From the sequence record PZ386967.1: DNA of 64,000 nt; one strand, given 5' to 3'. The notes under the pieces were generated by a model that saw nothing but the letters and a program-made list of their open reading frames with translations, did not search any database and was not told the DNA's origin. Below, in pieces: positions 2,212 through 52,932 of this stretch (position 1 is its first letter; every line of letters begins with the position of its first letter). The DNA is from a phage. Position numbers and translations under genes: made by a program.

Positions 2212-2263
2212 TCACTAAATATCTTTCAAATTGAGCGAAACTCTACAGAGAAGGAATAAGATT

Positions 2264-4159
2264 ATGGCAACTCAAAGCTTCAGCGTTGCGCCGTCCGTAC
2301 AGTGGACTGAGCGTGATGCCACGCTTCAGACGTCCCCATCCGTTGTTGTTCAGGGTGCGGCTGTCGGCAAATTCCAATGGGGTGAGGCAGAACTCCCTGT
2401 GTTGGTCACTGGTGGTGAAACTGGTCTGGTGAAGAAATTCTTCAAGCCAAACGATGCAACTGCCACCGACTTCTTAGTGATTGCTGACTTCCTGTCTTAC
2501 AGCTCTGTTGCATGGGTGACCCGTGTGGTCGGTCCGGCGGCACGCAACGCTGTAACCAAAGGTCAGACTGCAATCCTTATCCGCAACAAATTAGACTTCG
2601 AAACTGCGTCCCCATCTGCGTCTATTACCTGGACAGGCCGCTATGCTGGCTCTCTGGGTAACGACATTGCTGTGAACATCTGTGACGCTGCGCTGTTCCC
2701 GACCTGGGAATTCCGTAACAACTTCGCATATGCTCCGCAGGATGGCGAGTACCATATCGCCATCGTTGACAAAGTAGGTCGCATCACCGACTCTTCTGGC
2801 GCTGTTAGTCAGGTTGATCGTATCTCTGTATCCGGTACTGCCACCGCTGCTGGTTCCATCTCTGTTGCTGGTGAAGCCGTGGCGTACACTGACGCTGACA
2901 CCCCGGCGACTCTGGCGACAAAGATCGGAACTGCGCTGACGTCTCTGTCTGAAGTATATTCTTCTGTTGTCGTGAAGTCCAACACCGTCACCGTCACTCA
3001 CAAAGCAATCGGTCCTCAGGCTGCGACTGCGATTGTTCCAGACGCGAATGGCCTGACTGCTACCGCTGCCGTCACCACTGTTGGTGCTTCCGGTACGATC
3101 ATCGAGAAGTATGAACTGGTTCAGACCGCTCAGGGTTCTAAGAAATCTGATGGATCCAATGCATACTTCAAAGACGTGATCAACGGCACCTCAAATTGGG
3201 TGTACACCTTCGCCACTACCCTGGCTGCTGGTGTCATTGAACTCGAAGGTGGTGTAGACGATTACACTGGGAACCGTGTTGCGGCTATCCAGGCACTGAA
3301 CAACGCCGAAGCGTATGATGCCAAGCCAGTGTTCGGTTTCTGTGAAGAACTGATTGAGCAGCAGGCACTGATCGACCTGTCCACCGAGCGTAAAGACACA
3401 GTGTCCTTCGTGTCTCCTCTTCGCGATACGGTCGTCGGAAACCGTGGCCGTGAGATGGATGATGTTGTGGCCTGGCGTGAAAGTCTTGTTCGCGACTCCT
3501 CCTACTTCTTCATGGATGACAACTGGGCGTATGTGTACGACAAGTACAACGACAAAATGCGTTGGATTCCGGCTTGTGGCGGCACCGCAGGTGTTTGGGC
3601 GCGCAGCATTGAAATCGCGGGTATCTACAAATCTCCGGCGTTCCACAACCGTGGTAAATACAACAACTATAATCGAATGGCATGGTCTGCGTCTTCTGAT
3701 GAGCGTGCTGTGCTGTATCGCAACCAGATCAACAGCATTGTCACCTTCTCCAACGAAGGCATCGTGTTGTACGGCGACAAGACTGGCCTGACCCGCCCAT
3801 CTGCGTTCGACCGCATCAACGTTCGTGGTCTGTTCATTATGGCAGAGCAGAACATCGCAGCCATCGCCAAATACTACCTTGGTGAGAACAACGATGCATT
3901 CACTCGTGGGTTGTTCAGCAACGCTGTCCGCCCATATATCCGCCAGTTGGCCAACATGGGCGCGATCTATGACGGGATGGTGAAGTGTGATGAGGACAAC
4001 AACACTGCGGAAGTTATCGCTGCCAACCAGATGGTTGCTGGTATCTGGCTGAAGCCCGAGTACAGCATAAATTGGGTGTATCTCGACTTCGCCGCCGTTC
4101 GCCCGGACATGGAATTCAGTGAGATCGAATCCGGTGGTGGTATCGTAGCCGCTTCTTAA
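2264..4159 (+). CDS. gp18: Tail sheath protein (gp18-like)
   Basis: GKFQWG near N-terminus and C-terminal YGDKT...FDRINVRGLF resemble T4 gp18; ATG at 2264 has RBS GAAGGAA upstream (the track's 2231 start is TTG). Confidence 0.85.
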   Translation: MATQSFSVAPSVQWTERDATLQTSPSVVVQGAAVGKFQWGEAELPVLVTGGETGLVKKFFKPNDATATDFLVIADFLSYSSVAWVTRVVGPAARNAVTKGQTAILIRNKLDFETASPSASITWTGRYAGSLGNDIAVNICDAALFPTWEFRNNFAYAPQDGEYHIAIVDKVGRITDSSGAVSQVDRISVSGTATAAGSISVAGEAVAYTDADTPATLATKIGTALTSLSEVYSSVVVKSNTVTVTHKAIGPQAATAIVPDANGLTATAAVTTVGASGTIIEKYELVQTAQGSKKSDGSNAYFKDVINGTSNWVYTFATTLAAGVIELEGGVDDYTGNRVAAIQALNNAEAYDAKPVFGFCEELIEQQALIDLSTERKDTVSFVSPLRDTVVGNRGREMDDVVAWRESLVRDSSYFFMDDNWAYVYDKYNDKMRWIPACGGTAGVWARSIEIAGIYKSPAFHNRGKYNNYNRMAWSASSDERAVLYRNQINSIVTFSNEGIVLYGDKTGLTRPSAFDRINVRGLFIMAEQNIAAIAKYYLGENNDAFTRGLFSNAVRPYIRQLANMGAIYDGMVKCDEDNNTAEVIAANQMVAGIWLKPEYSINWVYLDFAAVRPDMEFSEIESGGGIVAAS

Positions 4160-4201
4160 TTTACTCCATGCCCTCTTCGGAGGGTACATTGAGGTATTGT
4201 T

Positions 4202-4504
4202 ATGAAAAGTTTTTCTCAATTTTTAGCAGAAGCAGGCCTAAAAGGTGACCTTCAGAAAGTTAAAGACTCCGTGATTGAATGGTTGGAAGACCAAGATGTA
4301 AGGCTCAAAAAGGGTGATATCGAAAATGGAGTATTTGGAGATTTCTTCCGCATAACCATTGATGATTTTGAATATACATATAATGGCAAAGAGATCAAAG
4401 TATTCGACCTGAAGAAAGATAAACAGGTTGTTAGCAAAGCTGCTGGAACTCGAGAAGCCCCAGGTGAACTCGGTAAATTGTTTAAGAAATACAGCAAAGT
4501 GTGA
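4202..4504 (+). CDS. Small basic protein with T4 internal-protein-like capsid targeting sequence
   Basis: N-terminus MKSFSQFLAE|AGL resembles T4 IP targeting sequence MKTYQEFIAE with L-x-E cleavage motif; followed by a terminator. Confidence 0.5.
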   Translation: MKSFSQFLAEAGLKGDLQKVKDSVIEWLEDQDVRLKKGDIENGVFGDFFRITIDDFEYTYNGKEIKVFDLKKDKQVVSKAAGTREAPGELGKLFKKYSKV

Positions 4505-4509
4505 CAAGA

Positions 4510-4537
4510 CCCCGCTTCGGCGGGGTTTTAAATTTTT
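4510..4537 (+). terminator. Rho-independent terminator
   Basis: Hairpin CCCCGC-TTCG-GCGGGG followed by a T-run. Confidence 0.7.
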
Positions 4538-4550
4538 CTAGATTATTTTA

Positions 4551-4578
4551 TTGAATTACTTTACTTCTTCAATAACTC
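4551..4578 (+). promoter_or_regulatory. T4-type early promoter (-35 TTTACT, 16-bp spacer, -10 TATAAT)
   Basis: Matches the repeated cassette; T4 early promoters have a GTTTAC-type -35. Conserved leader and start context follow. Confidence 0.55.
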
Positions 4579-4635
4579 ACGTATAATTCTAAACATAAGC
4601 AGTACGACACCAACTTGAAACGAAGGAACTATATC

Positions 4636-4992
4636 ATGACCAAGACCGAAATTAACGCTATCCTGAAAGAAATCGGCCTCTGCAACCTGAAACGCCGCGT
4701 CAATCCTTACCAGCCCGCAAAGCCAGTACGCGACAGCCAGGGAAAGATGATAAAAGGGATCTACTGTGCAGATGTTGGCCCAATGACTGTGACCAGTCCA
4801 CACATTGACAGATTTAACGCTATTGTTGAGGAGTTTTGTGGTAAGGTTCTGGGTGAACTAGCTAATGATTTATGCTCCCCAGATACCAAAGTTGTAGCTT
4901 TCGGGAGCCACCTCGTCACATTCCACCTCACCAGCTTCCGTGCCCACGGTGATTATCATGTGTATTATGCTCAGGTTAGCATTCGCAAATAG
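4636..4992 (+). CDS. Hypothetical early protein (119 aa)
   Basis: ATG inside the conserved GGAACTATATCATG start context; the track's 4615 start is an upstream TTG. Confidence 0.5.
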   Translation: MTKTEINAILKEIGLCNLKRRVNPYQPAKPVRDSQGKMIKGIYCADVGPMTVTSPHIDRFNAIVEEFCGKVLGELANDLCSPDTKVVAFGSHLVTFHLTSFRAHGDYHVYYAQVSIRK

Positions 4993-4998
4993 CAGTTT

Positions 4999-5025
4999 AC
5001 CCCGCTGAGGCGGGGTTTAGTTTTC
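4999..5025. terminator. Terminator hairpin between convergent genes
   Basis: ACCCCGC-TGAG-GCGGGGT followed by T-rich tract; lies between the + gene ending 4992 and the - gene ending 5017. Confidence 0.6.
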
Positions 5026-6801
5026 CAGTTCATACCGGATAAGACCACACCCCCAGATACGCCCCAACCCGGCTTCCACCGACAGCATATCCTCTGTTTT
5101 GCCTTCTATATCGTATCCAAGTTTAAGGAATTTCTCTTTCCTGAAATTGAATTTGTGTATACGTAAGCTATAGTCTGGTGTCACATATTTGTAATCAGGG
5201 GGAAGGATTTCCTTTTCAACAAATCCGTTATTCAGGTAAACATTTTTCAGACGACTGACAACACAACGATCACCAAAAGAATATACTGTCTCACCCCGAT
5301 GTCGAGCGATATAATATTTCAGCAAGCGTGAGAATGCGCCATGGCAATTGTTAGAAGCAAATCTCACCAATTCAATACCATGCACTCGTTTGGTAAACAA
5401 CATCACCGCCTGGATATTCCCAGTTTTGTCTACAAGGTGTATATAATCTGTCGCCACCACACCACCTTGTATATGGAATCGGTCGAGAAAGTCCTTGGAC
5501 GTCCTATAGGAGCCTTCCAAAATGGTATGTTGGCGAGCGTATGACAATGGTTTCCCTATCCCCAATTTTGCTTTTAGGAGTGATTTAACCACTTCCTGTT
5601 TGTCACGCCACTCATCTTCCCAGATATGGATTAATTGAATACCCTGGGATTCACAGTGCATAGTCTTTTCAAGATGGTAGTCTTTGTATCGATGTTTCTC
5701 CGAATGCCAATACAACCCATTAAATTCTATTGCCAACTTATGTTCTGGGCAGTATATGTCTATCTGGCGTGTGGTCGCCCTCCCGTCGAACATTTTACCT
5801 CTGAGGACGGAGAAATTACCAGATTCATAAACGACACCCAATGAATCCAGGTATGAACATATTTCTATTTCTGGCTGTGTTTGGCTTTGGCTGCTGGGGT
5901 ATGTGAAAGAGTTCCTATATTCTTCAGAAGAGAAATAGTGAGGTACGCCGTATTTTTCTTTTGAAATGATCCTGGTATTGGCCTGGCTTCTATCCCATAT
6001 AGCCTTTACCTTCAACGGATAATCAACCCCATATTTTAAGACGCATGTTTTCTTTCTCTTTTCTATAATGGAATTGAGGAACATTGGATGATCCACACCA
6101 TAGATCTTCCTCCAAGTCTCAATCACCCTTTCCCTCACTTCTGGCATTTTCATGACGTGTGATACGCCATAGCGTTCCATGACAGAAGCAGCCACTCTGT
6201 CCTTTATAACATCAGACTTCATAGGGTGGTCGACCCCATATTTCTTAAGGGCAGTTTCCCGTGACTTTTGTTTTACTTCTTCCAGTTGGAATATGTTGGC
6301 TACGCCATATTTCTCTGTTATGGCGTTTTCTAGGTTGGCCCGTTCTGAGCCTCCCACCTTCATTGATTCTCGTTGGCATTCTTCGGAACAAAACTTTTTG
6401 TATCTGGGCGGTTGGGCTTCCATTTCTAAGCCGACGTCAGCACCGCAAGTGGCACACTGCGACTTCGGAATATCGTACAGCCAAGCAGTTATCGCTTGTG
6501 GTTCTTCTAATAGGTCGTTGTGTGACACCACGTATCCAACAACATCAACCCCAGTATGGGCCGTGAGTAGGGGATGAGAGATAAGTTTGTAGTTCAACGA
6601 ACCATCTTTCTTCCTGAGTTTACTATCAACCCAAGAGCGGCATTCGGTTTCGGTCGTCGGGATGTCATCCAACAAACCCGGATTGCGTTTCATCGTTCCC
6701 AGCATGAATGATTTGCATTCGTCACTACAATACAACGCAGCCTTCCTGGTTGGGGTGAACGGTTTGTGGCAGCATAAACAATTTTTATCGGGGAATGGCA
6801 T
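5017..6801 (-). CDS. Free-standing homing-endonuclease-like protein: N-terminal zinc ribbon, five KYGV repeats, C-terminal PD-(D/E)XK-like nuclease domain
   Basis: CCHKPF...YCSDEC and CATCG...FCSEEC cysteine pairs; repeated ~28-aa units (EKYGVANIF, KKYGVDHPM, ERYGVSHVM, KIYGVDHPM, LKYGVDYPL, EKYGVPHYF); C-terminal IDIYCPEHKLAIEFNGLYWH...IWEDEW resembles Vsr/DUF559-type nucleases. Antisense insertion between gp18 and gp19. Likely ATG at 6801; the track starts at GTG 6816. Confidence 0.6.
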   Translation of the reverse strand: MPFPDKNCLCCHKPFTPTRKAALYCSDECKSFMLGTMKRNPGLLDDIPTTETECRSWVDSKLRKKDGSLNYKLISHPLLTAHTGVDVVGYVVSHNDLLEEPQAITAWLYDIPKSQCATCGADVGLEMEAQPPRYKKFCSEECQRESMKVGGSERANLENAITEKYGVANIFQLEEVKQKSRETALKKYGVDHPMKSDVIKDRVAASVMERYGVSHVMKMPEVRERVIETWRKIYGVDHPMFLNSIIEKRKKTCVLKYGVDYPLKVKAIWDRSQANTRIISKEKYGVPHYFSSEEYRNSFTYPSSQSQTQPEIEICSYLDSLGVVYESGNFSVLRGKMFDGRATTRQIDIYCPEHKLAIEFNGLYWHSEKHRYKDYHLEKTMHCESQGIQLIHIWEDEWRDKQEVVKSLLKAKLGIGKPLSYARQHTILEGSYRTSKDFLDRFHIQGGVVATDYIHLVDKTGNIQAVMLFTKRVHGIELVRFASNNCHGAFSRLLKYYIARHRGETVYSFGDRCVVSRLKNVYLNNGFVEKEILPPDYKYVTPDYSLRIHKFNFRKEKFLKLGYDIEGKTEDMLSVEAGLGRIWGCGLIRYELEN

Positions 6802-6882
6802 AATAAATATCCTCACTTTGGAGTATTTTAACCCCCATTTATTTCAAAACTAAATATTTACACTATTCAGAGGAGAACGACC

Positions 6883-7482: not shown

Positions 7483-9177
7483 ATGGCATTCGGTAATGGT
7501 GCATTCGGAAATGGGTTCTTCGGCTTGTTCGGCAGAGGCGGCAAAGTAGAAGCGCCGATTGATACCGACAAGATGGTCACGAACCAAGAAGAGAAGTTGC
7601 TTTCAAAAGCGACTGTTGTTGCGCTGGACGATTCTCAGGATGGTTCGATCATCCTCCAGGGCGGCGCGAACACATTCAATTTCGTTGGTGTTGAGAATGA
7701 GTTGCTCAACGTCAAACAGCTGGTCGAAGAGTACCAGTCTATGGCTCAGCAGCCTGAGATTCGTAAGGCTGTGGATATCATTGTCAACGACATCGTCACC
7801 TGTGAAGAGGACGAGACTCCTGTAACCATCAACCTGGAAAAGGTAGATGGCATCACAAACGAAGTCAAAGAGAAGATCACTGAAGCATTCAAAGAGATCA
7901 TGCATCTCCTTGACTTTGACAACACGGCGTATCAGAAGATCCGCAAATGGTATATTGAAGGCCGTCAGGCATTCCACGTTGTAGTGGACCCGAAGAACAA
8001 GAAAGCGGGTATCGCCAAACTCATCATGATGGACTCACGCTGTATCCGCCCAGTGTACATCGTTCAAAAGGCGATGCGCGACGGTATCGAAGTCATCAAT
8101 GACGTAAAACTTCAATACTACTACAACCCGAACTACAACCGCAACCAATTCACTGGCCAGTCCGGTACGTCTCAGAACTTCCAACCGTCACAGCAAGAGC
8201 TGGTGTTCGACGATGAGAGCATCGTGTATCTGGACAGTGGTGAAGAGCCTCTGGCGAATGGGGTTGTACCAAGCCTGCTGAACCCAGCTATCCGTCCCCT
8301 GAACAACCTTGTTACAACTGAAGATGCAACTGTGATCTATGCGATCACACGTGCTCCTGAGAAGCGAGCGTTCTATCTCGACGTGGGTACGCTGGGTAAG
8401 AAGTCGGCCGAAGAATACATGCAAGCCATGATGGGCAAATTCAAGAACCGTCTGGCGTATGATCGCACCACTGGTAAGGTGGCTGGTAACACTCATTTGA
8501 TGGGTATCGCTGAGGACTACTGGCTGCCACGTCGTGAAGGACAGAACGCAACCGAGATCTCCAACGTAGGCGGTGGCGATCAACTGGGTCAAATGGATCA
8601 TGTGGTATACTTCCGCGAGAAGCTCTACGAGGCTCTGATGATCCCTAAGAGCCGCCTGCAAGAGGAAGGTTCCATCAACATCGGTGGTTCCAATCTTGCT
8701 GAAATCACACAGGAAGAATTGCGCTTCAACAAGTTCTGTGCGAGCCTGCGCCGTCGTTATTCTTCTGGTATCTTCCTGGAACTTCTGCGCCGTCAGCTGA
8801 TATTGAAAGGCATTACAGATCAGGCTGACTGGAATGAGAAGATCAAGCCGTTCGTCAAGTTCGAATTCACTTCTGACAGCTTCATCCGTGAACAACAAGA
8901 GAACGAAATCTTGTCACAGCGTATGGCGGCTCTCGGTCAGATCGAACCATATATCGGCACTCTCTTCTCTATCGATTTTGCTCAACGCAATTTGCTGCGT
9001 ATGTCCGATGAAGACATCAAAGACCAGCAAGAGAAGATCGCGAAAGAGAAGAAAGAAGGCAAATACCCTGAAGTGCAGGCAGATGAGTCCGGCGGCTTCG
9101 GCAGCGGGGAAGTCAGTCCACTGAAATTCAGACCTAACGTCATCCCAGCGACTAACCCTCCTGGTGGTGAAGAATAA
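7483..9177 (+). CDS. gp20: Portal protein (gp20-like)
   Basis: 564-aa ORF in the gp19 to gp67/68/21 position of the T4 head module; good RBS. Confidence 0.75.
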   Translation: MAFGNGAFGNGFFGLFGRGGKVEAPIDTDKMVTNQEEKLLSKATVVALDDSQDGSIILQGGANTFNFVGVENELLNVKQLVEEYQSMAQQPEIRKAVDIIVNDIVTCEEDETPVTINLEKVDGITNEVKEKITEAFKEIMHLLDFDNTAYQKIRKWYIEGRQAFHVVVDPKNKKAGIAKLIMMDSRCIRPVYIVQKAMRDGIEVINDVKLQYYYNPNYNRNQFTGQSGTSQNFQPSQQELVFDDESIVYLDSGEEPLANGVVPSLLNPAIRPLNNLVTTEDATVIYAITRAPEKRAFYLDVGTLGKKSAEEYMQAMMGKFKNRLAYDRTTGKVAGNTHLMGIAEDYWLPRREGQNATEISNVGGGDQLGQMDHVVYFREKLYEALMIPKSRLQEEGSINIGGSNLAEITQEELRFNKFCASLRRRYSSGIFLELLRRQLILKGITDQADWNEKIKPFVKFEFTSDSFIREQQENEILSQRMAALGQIEPYIGTLFSIDFAQRNLLRMSDEDIKDQQEKIAKEKKEGKYPEVQADESGGFGSGEVSPLKFRPNVIPATNPPGGEE

Positions 9178-9214
9178 TTCGACTAAGTATAGAAAACATT
9201 TAGAGGATATGAAC

Positions 9215-9385
9215 ATGGCCGCTATCGATCTGGTAAAAGCAATCATCGCTGGTGATACTGATGCCGCTGCTGCTGAATGCGAAATGGAGCTGTCCGCTCG
9301 CGCCCAAGAACTGGTCCAGCAGGGTACTGAATATGTCTTGAACTCCCTGAGCCAAGACATGGGTCCTTTCGGCGACGACCAGTAA
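9215..9385 (+). CDS. gp67: Prohead core protein (gp67-like), small acidic
   Basis: Position between portal and gp68; small Ala/Glu-rich protein; ATG 9215 has the best RBS spacing (GAGGA, 7 nt). Confidence 0.45.
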   Translation: MAAIDLVKAIIAGDTDAAAAECEMELSARAQELVQQGTEYVLNSLSQDMGPFGDDQ

Positions 9386-9397
9386 GAGGAATGTATC

Positions 9398-9703
9398 ATG
9401 GAAATCGAAGAAGTTGCAACGTTCGCTGATTTCCTGGCTTCCCGCATGGATGAGCAGAAAGTCATTGACAAGGTGAACGCAAAAGGCAAACGCCGTCGCC
9501 GTCTGCAGTGTGCTCCTGGTTTCAAACTGTCTGCGGATGGTTCCCGTTGTGAGGTGATGGTCGCCAGTGAGCGCCGTACTCGCAAGCTGGGCAACCGCAA
9601 GGCGATCCGAGCCAAGAAACGCATGGGTATGGGATACCAGCGCAAAATCGAGCGTCGTAAGAAAAAAGCAATGAAGTTCCGTCGTATGATGGGGCTGAGT
9701 TAA
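9398..9703 (+). CDS. gp68: Prohead core protein (gp68-like), highly basic C-terminus
   Basis: Position between gp67 and gp21; KR-rich C-terminus. Confidence 0.45.
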   Translation: MEIEEVATFADFLASRMDEQKVIDKVNAKGKRRRRLQCAPGFKLSADGSRCEVMVASERRTRKLGNRKAIRAKKRMGMGYQRKIERRKKKAMKFRRMMGLS

Positions 9704-9710
9704 GGAGCGA

Positions 9711-10379
9711 ATGATGAAACTGTTGCGTGAGATCACTGCGATAGGGAAAGACCTTCAGATTGGTGAAGCGGCCACGGCTACTGGCGGCAAAGCCATGTAC
9801 ATCGAAGGTCCATTCGTGATGTGTAACCAGGTGAACCGTAATGGTCGCAACTACGATCTCCAAAAGGTGGGTATCCCTGCTGTCGAAGCATACGACAAAG
9901 AGTATATCCAGGATCGTCGTGCAATCGGTGAACTCAAGCATCCGGATTATCCTTTCCCCGATATCGAACACGCTGCACTCAAAACCGAATCTTTGCGCTG
10001 GGAAGGCACCAACGCTATCGGTCGAGCGCGGATCCTGAATACACCGAAAGGTCAGATCATTCGTGCTCTGGCTGAAGCAGACTTCAACCTGGCCGTGTCT
10101 ACACGTGGCCTTGGTGAGACCAAGTCAGTGAACGGCTATGATGACGTTCAACCCGGCTTTATGCTCACTGCTGTTGATGCAGTCGACCGTCCTTCTGGAC
10201 AAGTTTGTTATGTAAAGGCTGTGAGCGAATCTGTGGAATGGCAGCTTGATGAATCTTCAGGAATCTGGGTTCCTAAGGACATTAAGGGGCATGTGGTCGA
10301 TTCATTGGTGAAAACCAATATTCAGTTAGAAGACGACTTCCTGCGCCGCCTCGATATCGCATTGAAACATCTGGGCTGA
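9711..10379 (+). CDS. gp21: Prohead core scaffold/protease (gp21-like)
   Basis: AIGELKHPDYP...GRARIL...VSTRGLGE...LTAVDAV aligns with T4 gp21 ALGELNHPPR...GRARVI...VSSRGLGS...LTVGVDAV. Confidence 0.85.
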   Translation: MMKLLREITAIGKDLQIGEAATATGGKAMYIEGPFVMCNQVNRNGRNYDLQKVGIPAVEAYDKEYIQDRRAIGELKHPDYPFPDIEHAALKTESLRWEGTNAIGRARILNTPKGQIIRALAEADFNLAVSTRGLGETKSVNGYDDVQPGFMLTAVDAVDRPSGQVCYVKAVSESVEWQLDESSGIWVPKDIKGHVVDSLVKTNIQLEDDFLRRLDIALKHLG

Positions 10380-10424
10380 ATTCAGCCTCACTAAATACTG
10401 AAAATCGTTCAGAAGGAAACAATC

Positions 10425-11276
10425 ATGAAACCTGAATTGCAAAAACTGTTTGAGGGCGTTAACGGCCTCAGCACCGACTTCCTGGATAAAGTGTCTGGTC
10501 TGCTGGAATCTAAAGTAGAAGCCGCTCGCCTGACCGCTATTCAAGAAACCGAAAACGCTGCCAATATTGAGCGCCTGCGTCTGGTTGAAGCTCATCAGGC
10601 TGAGATTGCTCAGCTGAAAGAGTCTCACTTGATGGAAATTGCGACCAAAGTCGATGGCTTCCTGAACGCGGTTGTAGAAGAGTGGGCTAACAAGAACGCT
10701 CCTGCCATCGACGCTCAGATCAAACGTGAAGCGGCTGAAAATCTGCTGGCTGGCCTGACTGGTGTTCTGAAAGAAGCTGGTATCAACTTTGCCACCGACG
10801 AAAACGGCCAGATCGCTGCGCTGACTGCCCGCCTGACCGAAGCAGAACGACGTGCTGCGATTGCCGAAAGCGAAAACCGTCAAATCAAAGAAGCCGCGAA
10901 TGCGACTCTGCGTGACTCTGTGATCGCCCGTATCTGTGAAGGTATGGTCGACACCAAGAAAGCAACGGTTGTCAATCTGCTGGAAGCTGTGCAGTTCACC
11001 ACCGAAAGCGAATTCGCTTCCCGCGTACACACCTTCCGCAACCTGGTAGAAGGTAAGTCCGTGAAGAAAGAAGGCGATGACGATGACGATGACTTCCAAG
11101 ACAAAGTCGGCGGAAAAGACGGCGATGACGACAACAAAGATGTTAAAGCCGAAGGCAAAAAGCCTAAGAAAGAAGGCGATGAAGATGACGATGAAGATGA
11201 AACAGACAAAGAGCTGAAAGAATCTATCAAGCGTCAGTTGGCCGACTATAATCGTCGCTTCGGCATCAACGGCTAA
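10425..11276 (+). CDS. gp22: Prohead scaffolding protein (gp22-like), coiled-coil with acidic C-terminus
   Basis: Position between gp21 and gp23; alpha-helical Ala/Glu-rich sequence with poly-Asp/Glu tail. Confidence 0.7.
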   Translation: MKPELQKLFEGVNGLSTDFLDKVSGLLESKVEAARLTAIQETENAANIERLRLVEAHQAEIAQLKESHLMEIATKVDGFLNAVVEEWANKNAPAIDAQIKREAAENLLAGLTGVLKEAGINFATDENGQIAALTARLTEAERRAAIAESENRQIKEAANATLRDSVIARICEGMVDTKKATVVNLLEAVQFTTESEFASRVHTFRNLVEGKSVKKEGDDDDDDFQDKVGGKDGDDDNKDVKAEGKKPKKEGDEDDDEDETDKELKESIKRQLADYNRRFGING

Positions 11277-11358: not shown

Positions 11359-12693
11359 ATGACCATCATGGCTAAGAAACTTGTTACCGAACAAATGCGC
11401 GAGCAGTGGCTGCCAGTTCTTCAGAAAGAATCTGAAAGCATCCAGCCGCTTTCTGCCGAAAACGTTGCCGTCCGTCTGCTGCAAAACCAGGCTGAGTGGA
11501 ACGCCAAAAACCTGGGCGAATCCGACGCTCCTGGCTCCGTGAACGCCTCTGTGGGCAAATGGCAGCCAGTCCTGATCGACATGGCCAAACGTCTGGCTCC
11601 GGTCAACATCGCGATGGACTTCTTCGGCGTTCAGCCGCTGTCTGGTCCTGACGGTCAGATCTTTGCTCTGCGTGCTCGCCAGGGCATTTCAGACGGCGGA
11701 TCCAACACCCAACATTCCCGTAAAGAACTGTTCATGCAGGAAGCTGATTCTGGCTACTCTGGTGACGACACTGCTCAGGCTGGCGACCCATCTGGCTTTA
11801 CCCAGACTGAGATCGAAGGTTCCGGCGCTGCCACCACCACCATCGGTAAAGGCATGTCAACTTCCGACGCTGAACTGCTGGGCACCACCACTAACCCATG
11901 GGCACGTGTTGGTATCACCGTTCAGAAAGCAACCGTGACTGCGAAGTCTCGCGGCCTGTACGCTGACTACAGCCATGAACTGCGCCAGGACATGATGGCG
12001 ATCCACGGCGAAGACGTTGACAGCATCCTGTCCGACGTGATGGTAACTGAAATTCAGGCAGAGATGAACCGTGAGTTTATCCGCACCATGAACTTCAGCG
12101 CAGTACGCTTCAAAAAATTCGGCACCAACGGTATCGTAGATATCTCCACTGACATCTCCGGTCGTTGGGCGCTGGAAAAATGGAAGTACATGACTTTCAT
12201 GCTGGAAGTCGAAGCGAACGGCATCGGTGTTGACACCCGTCGTGGTAAAGGCAACCGTGTTCTGTGCTCCCCGAACGTAGCATCCGCTCTGGCGATGTCC
12301 GGCATGCTGGATTATGCTCCGGCGCTGCAGGAAAACACCAAGCTGGCGATTGATCCGACTGGCCAGACCTTCGCTGGTGTGCTGTCTAATGGTATGCGTG
12401 TCTACATCGACCCGTATGCAGTAGCAGAGTACATCACCCTGGCATACAAAGGCGCAACCGCGCTGGATGCTGGTATCTTCTTCGCCCCATACGTTCCGCT
12501 GGAGATGTACCGCACCCAGGGTGAAACCACCTTCGCACCGCGTATGGCGTTCAAGACCCGCTACGGGATTTGTGCTAACCCATTCGTTCAGATCCCAGCG
12601 AACCAGGATCCACAGGTCTATGTGACTGCGGATGGTATCGCCAAGGACACCAACGTGTATTTCCGCAAAGGGTTAATTAAGGGACTTTTCTAA
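11359..12693 (+). CDS. gp23: Major capsid protein (gp23-like)
   Basis: MDFFGVQPLSGPDGQIFALRA matches T4 gp23 FDICGVQPMNSPTGQVFALRA; the likely start is ATG 11368 (RBS AAGGA). Confidence 0.9.
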   Translation: MTIMAKKLVTEQMREQWLPVLQKESESIQPLSAENVAVRLLQNQAEWNAKNLGESDAPGSVNASVGKWQPVLIDMAKRLAPVNIAMDFFGVQPLSGPDGQIFALRARQGISDGGSNTQHSRKELFMQEADSGYSGDDTAQAGDPSGFTQTEIEGSGAATTTIGKGMSTSDAELLGTTTNPWARVGITVQKATVTAKSRGLYADYSHELRQDMMAIHGEDVDSILSDVMVTEIQAEMNREFIRTMNFSAVRFKKFGTNGIVDISTDISGRWALEKWKYMTFMLEVEANGIGVDTRRGKGNRVLCSPNVASALAMSGMLDYAPALQENTKLAIDPTGQTFAGVLSNGMRVYIDPYAVAEYITLAYKGATALDAGIFFAPYVPLEMYRTQGETTFAPRMAFKTRYGICANPFVQIPANQDPQVYVTADGIAKDTNVYFRKGLIKGLF

Positions 12694-49145: not shown

Positions 49146-52130
49146 ATGTCAAAGCCAAGTTTCCTCCAGTTCATGCAGGAAAGAGATCAGTTGGACGAAG
49201 CGTTCAACTCCGCTCCGTATGAGCTGACCATGGGTAAGAAGAACGCAGGCGATGTGTTCTTCACCTTCGTCGACGAAGATGATAAGGAATACCGCATTCA
49301 GTTCTATACTCCTCAGGGACTGGGCAAGAGCGTTCGTCAGGTTTTCATCGGCCAGAAGCGCGGCTCCGTCTATCCTGACGCCATCGCTCGCTTCAAGAAC
49401 CCAATGCGCGTTATTGCTTCCATGATCGAAGCGACCAAACAATTCATGGCGACTCCTCTGGGCAAAACTATCGATGGCTATGCTGTCAACTTCTCGAAGA
49501 AAGCGCTGGATCGCGGTATGACCCTGATTCCTAAGATCATCCGCCAGTCCGGTCTGAAGCAGAAACTGAATGTCATGGACCTGACCTACGCGCCTGTCCC
49601 TGACCGTGGTTATGTGTGGCTAGTTCGTAAGGGCAAAGATCCGGCTCAGGTATTCGACGGTCCGAAGATGCAGGGTATCACCTGGGATGATCCAGACAAG
49701 GTCGGTGACGTTCCGGTTCAGAACAATACTCCGGATGTGGGTGTGTCATCTTCTGTTGATAATTCCAACGGATGGAAATTAACTTCAAACGGGGATCAGC
49801 CCATGTTGATATGGGCTGGTAAGGAGAGAGGCCGCACGAATACGGCAAATATCGCTCCCCACTACAATGAGCCGGGCGTGTATGTTGGCGCATACATGAA
49901 TGAGAAACCTGTGCGTGGGCAAAGTGCTGATTTCATTGCTCGTCAGTTGAAATTACCACAAGTCCCTATCAGTATCCTGAATGATTTCACCACGGCGTCC
50001 ACAAAATTTTGGAAAGGTTCTCAACAGAAATCTGCGCCTGTTGTGCCGGCAGGTTCGGACAGAAATAACCCAGCCAACATTATCGGTTCTGGAACTGCTG
50101 TTATTGATGCCAAACGGCTTGGTGCTCAGGAAGTAAACGTGGAACGATTCAAAAACGGCGTTCGCATGCGTTCTCGAAACGGTGACGTCGACATCAGTAT
50201 TTCTGACCCAGACTTTTCAAATGCAGCAAGTGCGGCTGATGCTGCCACAGCCTCTGTTGTGGTCAAGAACGGGCGTTACGAAGGTGCCATCAATTCAAAG
50301 CGCAAGATTGCCCGCACCTCGAACGAGCAGGGTACTGAATGGGATATCATCGGTGTCAACGGGGAAACCCTTGTCTCTATCAAGTTGAACAAAGTGTCTA
50401 AATCCACATCAGATTCGACCGAGGGTGCAACCAGTGTTGATCAATTACGTGACAGCGGTTTCATCGCTCGTGTTCTGGGTATCATTGATACCAACGTTGG
50501 GCTGGACACTTCTATTCTTCCTGGTGAAAACATCCGTCGCGTGGGCGCTGGTCGTTACACGACGGCAGGCGGGTTGGTTATCGTTGTCAACTTCACAAAC
50601 GTCCTCGCTGGTTTCGTTCAATACTCAGTTTTCAGCGAAATTGCTGAAGAGGAGAACGTGGCCAAAGGTAGCGCCCGTGACGTCGCCAAGGCGGTAATTG
50701 CGTCCATCTTTGAGGTTGCTAAGACCCAGTACACTGGCAAATGGGAAATTAGCGCAGTGCCAACAAGCGCTCCATATCCTATCAAAGCCATTCGCCGTTC
50801 TCGGGGCTGGGGTTATGTGGAAACCGCAAACTGGACTCTGACAGTGTCCGACGCTGTCCTGAATCGTGTGAAGCCAGGGAACACTGCTCTACTGGAACTC
50901 ATCAAAGAACCTCCGCGTGGCAAGCACCCGCTGGAAATCATCCCAGAGAAGGGCGACAAGACCCTGATGCTGAAAGATCGTATCACCGGGGCCATCTATG
51001 GTTCTATCGACCTGAATGCCCAAGGCGCTGATCTGGTCAACTCTGGAACCCTGAAGATACCAAGCAACGCCATGGTGTTTGGTGAGACTGTCAACGGTAT
51101 GTCCATTCGGTGGGATGTCAATTTCCCCGAAACGGGAAAATACGCCGGTACTTCTATGATAACCAACGTGACCTATTACTACGACAAAGGTAAAGTTGCA
51201 TTCACCCCAATTGTCTCTCAGAAAGGGCGTACCCTGAACAATCCGAAGACATATGAACTTCCTTTAAACAAAGATATGGTCCAGAGTGTGATTGATGAGA
51301 TTTCATCAAAAATGGTATATCTTTCCAGAAACCTCCAACAGTTGAAAAGTCAGTCATACAACCCAAACCAGGTGTTCTTGAACGATATAACCATCACGGA
51401 TAAAGGTGAAGTGATTTGGAATGATTACAACTTGTCTGACGGCAAAGTTACACAAATTATGCTGTCCATGATAAGCGCAGAAAATAAACGCCTGGAGAAA
51501 GTAGCAAACACGCCGGATATCAATATCACATTGCCCAAGAAACAAGCTGAAGTGGTAGAATTTATAAACCGGATGATCGATGTCGATCTCACCCCTTATG
51601 TGAGAACCCCCAAAAAACGTGATGTGGTATTATTTGACTCTTCTGAATTGTCGATAAACCAACTCAACAACATAGAACGCCTGGGAAGAGAAACAGGAAA
51701 ATGGTCTCTTCAGCCAAACGGTGGTATGGGTCATGCACTACTTCTGAAAAGCACGTCGCACAATCCGAAGGACGACCTTGCGGCATACGCCGACTCCATT
51801 CGCGACAACGCACCAAAAGGTCGCGACCTGGATTGGCAGATCTATGCAAGCCGTGATGGTCAGACTCTGAACGTGGACTGGGATATCACCTTCCGCCGCA
51901 ACACAACTGAAGGGGCATATCGCGAGTTCAAAGCTCAGATTGACCGCGCCAACCAGTACCTGCAGACACTGTACCGGGATGCGAAGTCCAAGGGTTACAA
52001 CCCGACTGAACCAAACCTGATGACTCTGGATAGCGCCCAGCAGTCTGACCAGTGGGCACGAGACTACGGGGAAGGCGCATACAGCGAGTACGAGCAGTCC
52101 CTGGGTGGCAACATGCAGATTAAGATCTGA
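49146..52130 (+). CDS. Large (994 aa) protein with internal-protein-like N-terminal capsid targeting sequence; candidate packaged/injected protein
   Basis: N-terminus MSKPSFLQFMQERDQLDE|AF resembles the T4 targeting sequence with L-x-E cleavage motif; RBS AGGAGA; no catalytic family recognised. Confidence 0.55.
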   Translation: MSKPSFLQFMQERDQLDEAFNSAPYELTMGKKNAGDVFFTFVDEDDKEYRIQFYTPQGLGKSVRQVFIGQKRGSVYPDAIARFKNPMRVIASMIEATKQFMATPLGKTIDGYAVNFSKKALDRGMTLIPKIIRQSGLKQKLNVMDLTYAPVPDRGYVWLVRKGKDPAQVFDGPKMQGITWDDPDKVGDVPVQNNTPDVGVSSSVDNSNGWKLTSNGDQPMLIWAGKERGRTNTANIAPHYNEPGVYVGAYMNEKPVRGQSADFIARQLKLPQVPISILNDFTTASTKFWKGSQQKSAPVVPAGSDRNNPANIIGSGTAVIDAKRLGAQEVNVERFKNGVRMRSRNGDVDISISDPDFSNAASAADAATASVVVKNGRYEGAINSKRKIARTSNEQGTEWDIIGVNGETLVSIKLNKVSKSTSDSTEGATSVDQLRDSGFIARVLGIIDTNVGLDTSILPGENIRRVGAGRYTTAGGLVIVVNFTNVLAGFVQYSVFSEIAEEENVAKGSARDVAKAVIASIFEVAKTQYTGKWEISAVPTSAPYPIKAIRRSRGWGYVETANWTLTVSDAVLNRVKPGNTALLELIKEPPRGKHPLEIIPEKGDKTLMLKDRITGAIYGSIDLNAQGADLVNSGTLKIPSNAMVFGETVNGMSIRWDVNFPETGKYAGTSMITNVTYYYDKGKVAFTPIVSQKGRTLNNPKTYELPLNKDMVQSVIDEISSKMVYLSRNLQQLKSQSYNPNQVFLNDITITDKGEVIWNDYNLSDGKVTQIMLSMISAENKRLEKVANTPDINITLPKKQAEVVEFINRMIDVDLTPYVRTPKKRDVVLFDSSELSINQLNNIERLGRETGKWSLQPNGGMGHALLLKSTSHNPKDDLAAYADSIRDNAPKGRDLDWQIYASRDGQTLNVDWDITFRRNTTEGAYREFKAQIDRANQYLQTLYRDAKSKGYNPTEPNLMTLDSAQQSDQWARDYGEGAYSEYEQSLGGNMQIKI

Positions 52131-52154
52131 TCATTGAAAGCCCCTTCGGGGGCT

Positions 52155-52162
52155 TATAAATA
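52155..52162 (+). promoter_or_regulatory. T4-type late promoter (TATAAATA)
   Basis: Exact TATAAATA 26 nt upstream of the ATG at 52188. Confidence 0.5.
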
Positions 52163-52187
52163 ACTGAAATCCCCGAGGAGAGATCCA

Positions 52188-52493
52188 ATGAAACCTTTTA
52201 TCGAATATTTTAAAGAACAAGCCGCTCAACCCCAGACCCATGCTGGTGTCCAGGGTAAGACCGTATCCATCACCAAGCAAGCTGACGGCACCCAGTGGTG
52301 TTCCGGCGCTACCGTGACCCAGATTACCCCTGACAATCAGGCGGATGTATATAACCTGGAGTTAACCAACGGCAACACTATCAAGGTGAAGCTGACCCCA
52401 GACCAGACTCACGGTATCTCCCAAGGTCAGGAAGTCGTTGCTGTTCATGACGGCTTCGAATTCTTCTTTGGCAAGTCTATCGACAAAGACTAA
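52188..52493 (+). CDS. Internal-protein-like small protein with capsid targeting sequence
   Basis: MKPFIEYFKE|QAA resembles T4 IPI/IPII/IPIII N-termini; canonical late promoter and RBS GAGGAGA upstream. Confidence 0.5.
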   Translation: MKPFIEYFKEQAAQPQTHAGVQGKTVSITKQADGTQWCSGATVTQITPDNQADVYNLELTNGNTIKVKLTPDQTHGISQGQEVVAVHDGFEFFFGKSIDKD

Positions 52494-52578
52494 GTGAAAC
52501 CATCAAGATGACTCTTGTCAAGCCATGATCATAATCCCCCTTAAATACAGGGGGATTTCTTTTTCTGAGGACAACATC

Positions 52579-52932
52579 ATGGTCAATGCGAGTATTTTCA
52601 TCAACCGTGGACTGCTTGCTATAGCCCACTCTCATGCCTTGCACTTCGTTACAACATCCTATGCCAAGCACAAGGCACTCGGGGAGTTCTACGGGGAATT
52701 GGAGGGCTTGCTGGACACGTTTACCGAAGCATACATCGGTGCGGGTGGTCAGTATGTTCCATCATTCGAGAATATCAAATTGTACAACCCAGACCCTATC
52801 TCCTATATTAACAGTGTGGTGATAGACGTCGATGGCATCTACAAGCAGTGTGACTCCCACCTTCAGAGCACTCTTGACGATATCAAGACACTGTGCTACC
52901 AGACGATCTACAAACTGAAGCAGCTGTCGTAA
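52579..52932 (+). CDS. Hypothetical protein (117 aa)
   Basis: Internal ATG of the track ORF with RBS GAGGA 8 nt upstream. Confidence 0.4.
   Translation: MVNASIFINRGLLAIAHSHALHFVTTSYAKHKALGEFYGELEGLLDTFTEAYIGAGGQYVPSFENIKLYNPDPISYINSVVIDVDGIYKQCDSHLQSTLDDIKTLCYQTIYKLKQLS

Follow-up and report, generated by a model that had tools for sequence, protein, structure and literature searches.

A small gene behind the tail sheath gene of an Ackermannviridae phage is a candidate gene for a T4-type internal head protein

Introduction

A small open reading frame directly behind the tail sheath gene of an Ackermannviridae phage (hereafter the target ORF) probably encodes an internal head protein of the T4 type, one that would be packaged into the head, trimmed and injected into the host. 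Proteins of this class are the first of a phage's proteins that the host encounters, and those of T4 include one that specifically inhibits a modification-dependent restriction enzyme. Phages of the Ackermannviridae are used in biocontrol and diagnostics, and their DNA is hypermodified. The ORF lies in a stretch of 64,000 nucleotides (PZ386967.1), the whole of which we call the window. A nucleotide search assigned the window to the ViI-like myoviruses of the Ackermannviridae, with 96–97% identity to the Escherichia phages vB_EcoM-ZQ1 (ZQ1) and LHE287 of the subfamily Aglimvirinae; over 200 relatives among the Salmonella, Klebsiella and Escherichia phages matched it less closely.

The sequence comparisons reported here support the view that the target is a protein with a T4-type capsid targeting sequence (CTS) and an orphan cargo, in a family in which such proteins have not been described before. 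The words 'internal', 'prohead', 'injected' and 'anti-defen' are all absent from a 2024 review of the Ackermannviridae. Our searches of literature full text returned no paper with the phrase 'internal head protein' alongside Ackermannviridae names, and for ViI-like phages we found nothing usable on internal proteins or on the processing of the capsid protein.

Results

The target ORF sits in a cassette at the 3′ end of the tail sheath gene

The preliminary description of this DNA, made from the letters of the window alone, had placed the gene directly downstream of the tail sheath gene, and this proved correct: the ORF starts 42 nt past the sheath stop codon (4157–4159) and has a GAGG ribosome-binding site 8 nt 5′ of its ATG (Table 1). 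The same description had called the protein small and Lys-rich like the T4 internal proteins. Its size and lysine content do match (100 aa and 16% Lys, compared to 100 aa and 15% for T4 IPII), but it is not basic, with a pI of only 7.8 compared to 8.9–9.5 for IPI–III, because it contains many acidic residues besides Lys. At 37.6%, the target gene is lower in GC than both the whole window (49.5%) and the sheath gene (53%).

The GC-rich hairpin that separates the sheath stop codon from the target ORF was not called by terminator prediction, and alignment revealed counterparts of it in phage Magnus and in loci L005 and L007. The intrinsic terminator behind the ORF is common to PC3 and is therefore taken to be the sheath operon's own. 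Upstream of the sheath gene, the TAAATA box is the likely source of a transcript carrying both the sheath and the target ORF. Neither TATAAATA nor TAAATA was present within 100 nt upstream of the target ORF, and on this ground we rejected a late promoter of its own for the target gene. Lying past the sheath stop codon but ahead of the sheath terminator, and without its own promoter, the cassette is probably co-transcribed late with the sheath gene.

Table 1. Positions in the window of the target ORF, its cassette and related features
Feature	Position	Strand	Details or basis
Target ORF	4202–4504	+	ATG 4202, TGA 4502–4504; encodes 100 aa
Inserted accessory cassette	4160–4513	+	Hairpin, ribosome-binding site and ORF
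GC-rich hairpin GCCCTCTTCGGAGGGT, without T-run	4170–4185	+	Between sheath stop codon and target ORF
Codons 1–10 (MKSFSQFLAE), predicted capsid targeting sequence	4202–4231	+	Ends at predicted protease site L-A-E/A
Predicted mature 90-aa domain and stop codon	4232–4504	+	AF2 model, dN/dS
Intrinsic terminator, 10-bp stem then T-run	4506–4539	+	Also in PC3
Tail sheath gene (gp18 homolog)	2264–4159	+	ZQ1 and Magnus annotations; cassette at 3′ end
Late-promoter-like TAAATA box	2216–2221	+	Within CACTAAATAT, ~45 nt 5′ of sheath start
Prohead protease (gp21 homolog), predicted remover of leader	9711–10379	+	39% identity to T4 gp21
Scaffolding core protein (gp22 homolog), presumed leader docking partner	10425–11276	+	Annotations, motif count
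994-aa leader-bearing gene	49146–52130	+	N-terminus MSKPSFLQFMQE...LDE/A
101-aa leader-bearing gene, MKPFIEYFKE/Q	52188–52493	+	TATAAATA at 52155–52162

Two further genes lie between the target ORF and the tail tube gene. A 118-aa ORF (4636–4992, plus strand; phrog_13016) has its own sigma70-like promoter at 4560–4587 and adjoins a gene for a 599-aa free-standing homing endonuclease (5017–6816, minus strand; phrog_3339), which contains DUF7487 and a DUF559/Vsr-like nuclease. The promoter and 5′ UTR of the 118-aa ORF also precede Sajous1 gp213, just 5′ of the leader-protein locus of Sajous1. A repeated early-promoter cassette beside the target was considered and rejected, as this 37-nt promoter/5′ UTR segment has no second copy in the window and a search for local repeats found none. 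A 15-nt element, AGGAACTATATCATG, is present in seven plus-strand copies with at most one mismatch (4624, 13286, 14078, 33307, 48723, 61210 and 61461), where none would be expected by chance. Each copy lies where a small ORF begins, and the element seems to be a context for translation initiation that small genes of one class have in common.

The N-terminus resembles the T4 capsid targeting sequence

We compared the N-terminus of the target with the leaders of the T4 internal proteins in the T4 record (NC_000866), in which IPII and IPIII begin with MKTYQEFIAE/A and IPI with MKTFKEF...ITE/A (the slash marks the protease site). Scored with BLOSUM62 against MKTYQEFIAEA, the target N-terminus, MKSFSQFLAE/A, reached 32 and ranked first among the window's 2179 candidate ORF starts, whose scores averaged −2.5 (sd 5.3; second-best 22; z about 6.5 for the target), bearing out the earlier statement that it is the closest match in the window to the T4 targeting sequence. 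BLASTP aligned the target with T4 IPII over residues 1–11 only, with 6 of 11 positions identical and 10 of 11 positive; within the 10-residue leader, 6 of 10 residues are identical to the T4 type and 3 are conservative replacements, and Ala follows in both. The target thus shares with IPII, IPIII and IPI the 10-residue label MK[ST][FY]x[QE]F[LI]AE followed by Ala, and in all of them the label ends in the (L/I)xE prohead-protease motif. The IPII precursor and the target, which are equally long and similar in lysine, have nothing conserved past the label. By our own arithmetic from amino-acid frequencies, the chance of a regex-level match to the leader is ~1e-9 per protein N-terminus. In T4, the CTS by itself has been reported to be enough to encapsidate foreign proteins (PMC3012670).

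The target protein has no [LI]xE motif besides the L8-A9-E10/A11 site, and M1, F4, L8 and E10 are invariant across all target homologs, with positions 3, 5, 6, 7, 9 and 11 of the leader being variable. In the Agtrevirus allele, five extra residues create a second L-S-E site (MRTFSKFLAE-RALSE-G), an arrangement that resembles T4 IPII, which is doubly processed. AF2 modeled the leader (residues 4–12) as a low-confidence helix with a pLDDT of about 57, a result that is uninformative either way.

The window encodes T4-type head-assembly machinery

The first 13 kb of the window form a late module of the T4 type, in the order terminase large subunit, tail sheath, target ORF, 118-aa ORF, homing endonuclease (minus strand), tail tube, portal, gp67-/gp68-like core proteins, gp21-like protease, gp22-like scaffold and major capsid protein, with the scaffold and core protein genes occupying 9164–11276. 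The gp21 homolog retains GELxHP and VSxRGLG, the motifs that surround the catalytic His and Ser, and Peptidase_S77 was recorded for the gp21 homolog of locus L005. We counted protease motifs, [LI]xE followed by a small residue, in several of the phage's proteins. In the scaffold (283 aa) there are 13 of them, or 4.6 per 100 aa; the terminase, sheath, tube, portal, capsid and helicase proteins have 0–0.5 per 100 aa, and the enrichment of the scaffold is put at well over tenfold. The one motif of the major capsid protein (11359–12693) is at residue 54 (NLGE/S), where the T4 propeptide boundary would fall. The motif-rich scaffold, the single capsid site and the single site in the target argue for a protease specificity like that of T4, which the gp21 homolog of the window very probably has; T4-like degradation of the scaffold and a 54-residue capsid propeptide are predicted on this basis. 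With its only motif at residue 10, the target would be cut once, at the end of its leader, and be resistant to the protease from then on. Expected peptides would be an N-terminal AGLKGDLQK for the cleaved protein and SFSQFLAEAGLK for the uncleaved one.

The source phage also encodes homologs of gp55 and gp33. TAAATA is strongly biased in strand over the window (17 copies on plus, 4 on minus) and precedes the genes for sheath, tube, scaffold and the 101-aa leader protein, and the exact T4 box TATAAATA is found only twice. From this bias and placement, together with the rarity of the exact box, the late promoter of the family seems to be a relaxed (C/A)TAAATA. At the beginning of the module, the ORF for the terminase large subunit (1–2211, 736 aa) contains an intein-like insertion at about 328–804 (CVKGDTL...FLSHNT), and the terminase homolog of Magnus is annotated as a precursor with an intein.

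Homologs of sibling leader-bearing proteins are found in virions

The target had been counted as the third gene of its kind, and two further leader-bearing genes do lie in the window (Table 1); in the whole genome of ZQ1, only three real genes have such a leader, namely the target, one for a protein of ~1000 aa and one for a protein of 101 aa. The sole LxE/A site of the 994-aa protein is at residue 18, and a segment of this protein matches phrog_7673, 'internal head protein'. The 101-aa leader gene is core and occurs in 277 Ackermannviridae records. Homologs of the 994-aa protein are Sajous1 gp214 and LIMEstone1 ORF081/082, and those of the 101-aa protein are gp215 and ORF080. The Sajous1 locus encodes three leaders, MAIPSFLNFLEE in gp214, MKPFIEYFKE in gp215 and MKGFPDFLKE in gp216, followed by the Dps-like gp217.

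In CsCl-purified whole virions of the Salmonella phage Sajous1, 196 spectra were recorded for gp214, 32 for gp215, 20 for gp216 and 10 for gp217, and the authors took gp214–217 as tail-associated (PMC10892097). The homologs in the Dickeya phage LIMEstone1 (ORF080, ORF081/082 and ORF078), likewise identified in virions by mass spectrometry, were listed as 'confirmed structural proteins' (PMC3296691). The leaders suggest that the proteins of the corresponding locus in the window (49146–52932) are head-internal rather than tail proteins. If they are cleaved as expected, the new N-termini would be AFNSAPYELTMGK for the 994-aa protein (after LDE18) and QAAQPQTHAGVQGK for the 101-aa protein, and peptides of the cleaved Sajous1 siblings would include QAQQPQTHGGIQGK for gp215 and AKVDHR for gp216.

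The siblings (Sajous1 gp214–216 and LIMEstone1 ORF080–082) share with the target the phage family, location among late genes and a motif of the form [S/T/P]F..[F/Y][L/F/M].E among residues 1–12. They are, however, core genes (~277 records) at one conserved locus, whereas the target is rare and mobile, and their leaders depart more from the T4 consensus than does that of the target, which is the most T4-like. In its own right, the conserved late locus at 49146–52932 combines two leader-bearing genes with a following gene for a Dps/ferritin-like protein (DUF5856), and its homologs in Sajous1 and LIMEstone1 have been read as tail or 'ferrojan horse' proteins.

The target gene is conserved in sequence and mobile in position

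Homologs of the target were found in five phage records only (ZQ1, LHE287, Magnus, SKML-39 and CAU_YEP3) and in four metagenome clusters, all in Ackermannviridae contexts, and a search of 5.8 billion proteins returned only four close clusters. Amino-acid identity among the homologs is 76–100%, synonymous sites are saturated between lineages, and dN/dS is 0.04–0.12 where computable. These values confirm that the target ORF is a real gene under strong purifying selection, and we rejected the reading that it is not a gene on the same values. The gene occurs in a handful of about 280 Ackermannviridae records and is therefore dispensable.

Comparing the locus across related phages, a check proposed at the outset, revealed that the cassette is missing in PC3 (95% identical), in which the terminator ACCCCGCTTCGGCGGGGTTTT comes immediately after the sheath stop codon. 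SKML-39 and CAU_YEP3, which are Agtrevirus phages, have the target homolog directly 3′ of the major capsid gene. The allele common to the window and Magnus has a GC3 of 0.34, compared to 0.60–0.67 in the other alleles, and nucleotide identity between the window and Magnus is 96–98% in the ORF but 78–88% in the adjoining sheath gene. The ORF being closer to Magnus than the flanking sheath gene is, recent transfer is indicated: an Escherichia phage of the Aglimvirinae and a Klebsiella Taipeivirus either exchanged the gene or received it from a common donor of low GC. The gap between sheath and tube holds genes for GIY-YIG or other homing endonucleases in Menlow, RPN242, PC3 and Magnus; on this comparison of genomes, mobile genes in general land in this gap. 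The target has the marks of an accessory cassette (moron), being present or absent among close relatives, atypical in composition and located between core genes, and we propose that it is a horizontally mobile cassette that inserts at the 3′ ends of the most highly expressed late genes, either sheath or major capsid.

This mobility bears on two other explanations of the gene. It might be a selfish passenger of homing-endonuclease traffic, spread by co-conversion and of no benefit to the phage, as homing endonuclease genes adjoin it both in the window (5017–6816, minus strand) and in Magnus (GIY-YIG), its exchange between genera was recent and its GC3 is foreign. Such an explanation accounts for the movement of the gene but not for its role. 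Moreover, in L005 and L006 the target homolog is the single gene between sheath and tube, unaccompanied by an endonuclease gene, the protein has no nuclease domain, and purifying selection on it persists past synonymous saturation; we regard this explanation as very improbable. Alternatively, the protein could be a virion component outside the head interior, such as a tail, neck or capsid-surface accessory. Its location between the sheath and tube genes and the tail assignment that the Sajous1 authors gave to the siblings gp214–217 (PMC10892097) fit this possibility, but the Agtrevirus homolog follows the capsid gene instead of the sheath gene, the sheath–tube gap receives GIY-YIG and other mobile genes in general, the target has no similarity to structural families, and its leader is the T4 head-core tag. 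A place elsewhere in the virion is thus quite improbable in our judgment, and a protein of the head interior remains the reading that we favor.

The leader heads many unrelated proteins in metagenomes

We back-translated the leader pattern M-K-[S/T/R]-F-x-x-F-[L/F]-A-E-A to a DNA pattern and scanned it over IMG/VR. The scan matched 51 loci (L011–L061), each time at an ORF start, whereas two controls in which the codons of the pattern had been permuted matched 0 and 0 loci. The leader ATG lies at most 25 codons downstream of an in-frame stop in all but 6 of the 51 loci, and these 6 are members of a 7-locus family located directly 3′ of a capsid gene, behind the perfect T4 late promoter TATAAATA. 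One of the matches, L046, is the target gene itself on a 154-kb contig. The proteins of the 51 loci fall into 26 cargo families with no mutual similarity beyond residue 11. Many of the contigs have 33–46% GC and T4-type core genes (portal, terminase, sheath and gp21-gp22-gp23). One cargo is an Alt-like ADP-ribosyltransferase, another is a PHROG 'virion structural protein', and others contain motifs resembling those of nucleotidyltransferases, GNAT, ligase and HAD proteins. As judged from sequence, the 26 leader-bearing families look like a broad repertoire of capsid-targeted cargo.

These results bear on a more ordinary explanation, namely that the target is a cytoplasmic late accessory protein (moron) that is never packaged and whose CTS-like start is a coincidence or the first helix of its fold. 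A sporadic, dispensable gene, a product that is not basic and the AF2 helix at residues 4–12 would all fit such a protein. Coincidence, however, is hard to reconcile with a match at the ~1e-9 level, with the first rank among 2179 N-termini, with an 11-mer that heads 26 unrelated families when permuted controls find none, and with the invariance of L8 and E10 while neighboring leader positions vary. We therefore consider a cytoplasmic role unlikely, though it is an alternative to be taken seriously, and prefer packaging in the head.

The mature domain may be a binder or inhibitor

Past the leader, the AF2 model of the target (pLDDT 72.8) contains an antiparallel sheet of five strands between a first helix and a C-terminal one. 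The protein matched no Pfam or PHROG family, and searches of structure libraries with the model gave no convincing fold match. A profile search for distant homologs among 1.84 billion representatives yielded weak multi-repeat matches to giant surface proteins that carry Listeria-Bacteroides or cadherin/VCBS-like repeats; these were judged non-homologous and rejected, because the likeness consists of a beta-hairpin motif (WLxDxD...EYTY). We also rejected the target as a homing endonuclease, as Pfam and PHROG searches detected no GIY-YIG, HNH, LAGLIDADG or PD-(D/E)XK domain and AF2 predicts a small alpha/beta sandwich. The small size of the mature form (90 aa) and its lack of an enzymatic domain make a binder or inhibitor more likely than an enzyme, and a stable alpha/beta domain of this kind, delivered with the DNA, would fit such a role.

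In ViI-like phages, about 40% of thymidine is replaced by 5-NeOmdU (PMC5889632). T4 DNA carries glucosyl-hmC, and T4 IPI* is an injected inhibitor of GmrSD (PMC3012670). The parallel between 5-NeOmdU DNA and the T4 pair of glucosyl-hmC and IPI* makes an anti-defense role plausible, and by this analogy we speculate that the target domain may have one.

Discussion

The preliminary description had called the target an internal-protein-like gene, and the CTS match, the modular leader, the protease and scaffold genes and the virion proteins among the siblings support that proposal at the level of sequence. We envisage the following course of events. The anatomy of the locus suggests that the target would be transcribed late, on the tail sheath message. 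During prohead assembly, the leader MKSFSQFLAE would, by T4 precedent, dock the protein into a core of the gp22/gp67/gp68 type, and the gp21-like protease would cut after Glu10 at L-A-E/A. Cleavage would free a protease-resistant alpha/beta domain of 90 aa, which would be kept in the head with the DNA. More speculatively, this domain may be ejected into the host with the genome and act before any phage gene is expressed, and its most plausible target may be a host defense or takeover target.

The target resembles the T4 internal proteins in occupying a variable, dispensable locus as well as in its label. The T4 proteins, however, belong to the Straboviridae and are basic, whereas the target belongs to the Ackermannviridae, is near neutral, represents an orphan cargo family and is known from sequence alone; and T4 ip loci have their own promoters, whereas the target rides the late transcript of the sheath or capsid gene as an inserted cassette. 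With T4 Alt and other injected proteins packaged in the head, the target shares the concept of delivery with the DNA and action before phage transcription, and an Alt-like metagenomic protein bears a leader identical to that of the target. The target differs in its mature length of only 90 aa and in lacking an enzymatic domain.

A bolder reading, to which we lend tentative and rather doubtful credence, is that the T4 CTS is a universal portable label across the T4 superfamily, Ackermannviridae and many uncultured aquatic myoviruses among them, and that the target is a cross-genus injected effector able to work in any head with a gp21/gp22 core, a new inhibitor of host defense that might act, for example, on the sensing of 5-NeOmdU DNA. 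Were the label universal in this way, searching for the leader would mine injected anti-defense and takeover proteins straight from sequence. If the leader works as it does in T4, the 11-residue tag would find injected effectors in metagenomes, where one strict pattern gave 26 families, and it would be usable for loading foreign proteins into Ackermannviridae heads. On the same condition, the Ackermannviridae would package and inject three core proteins together with mobile extras such as the target.
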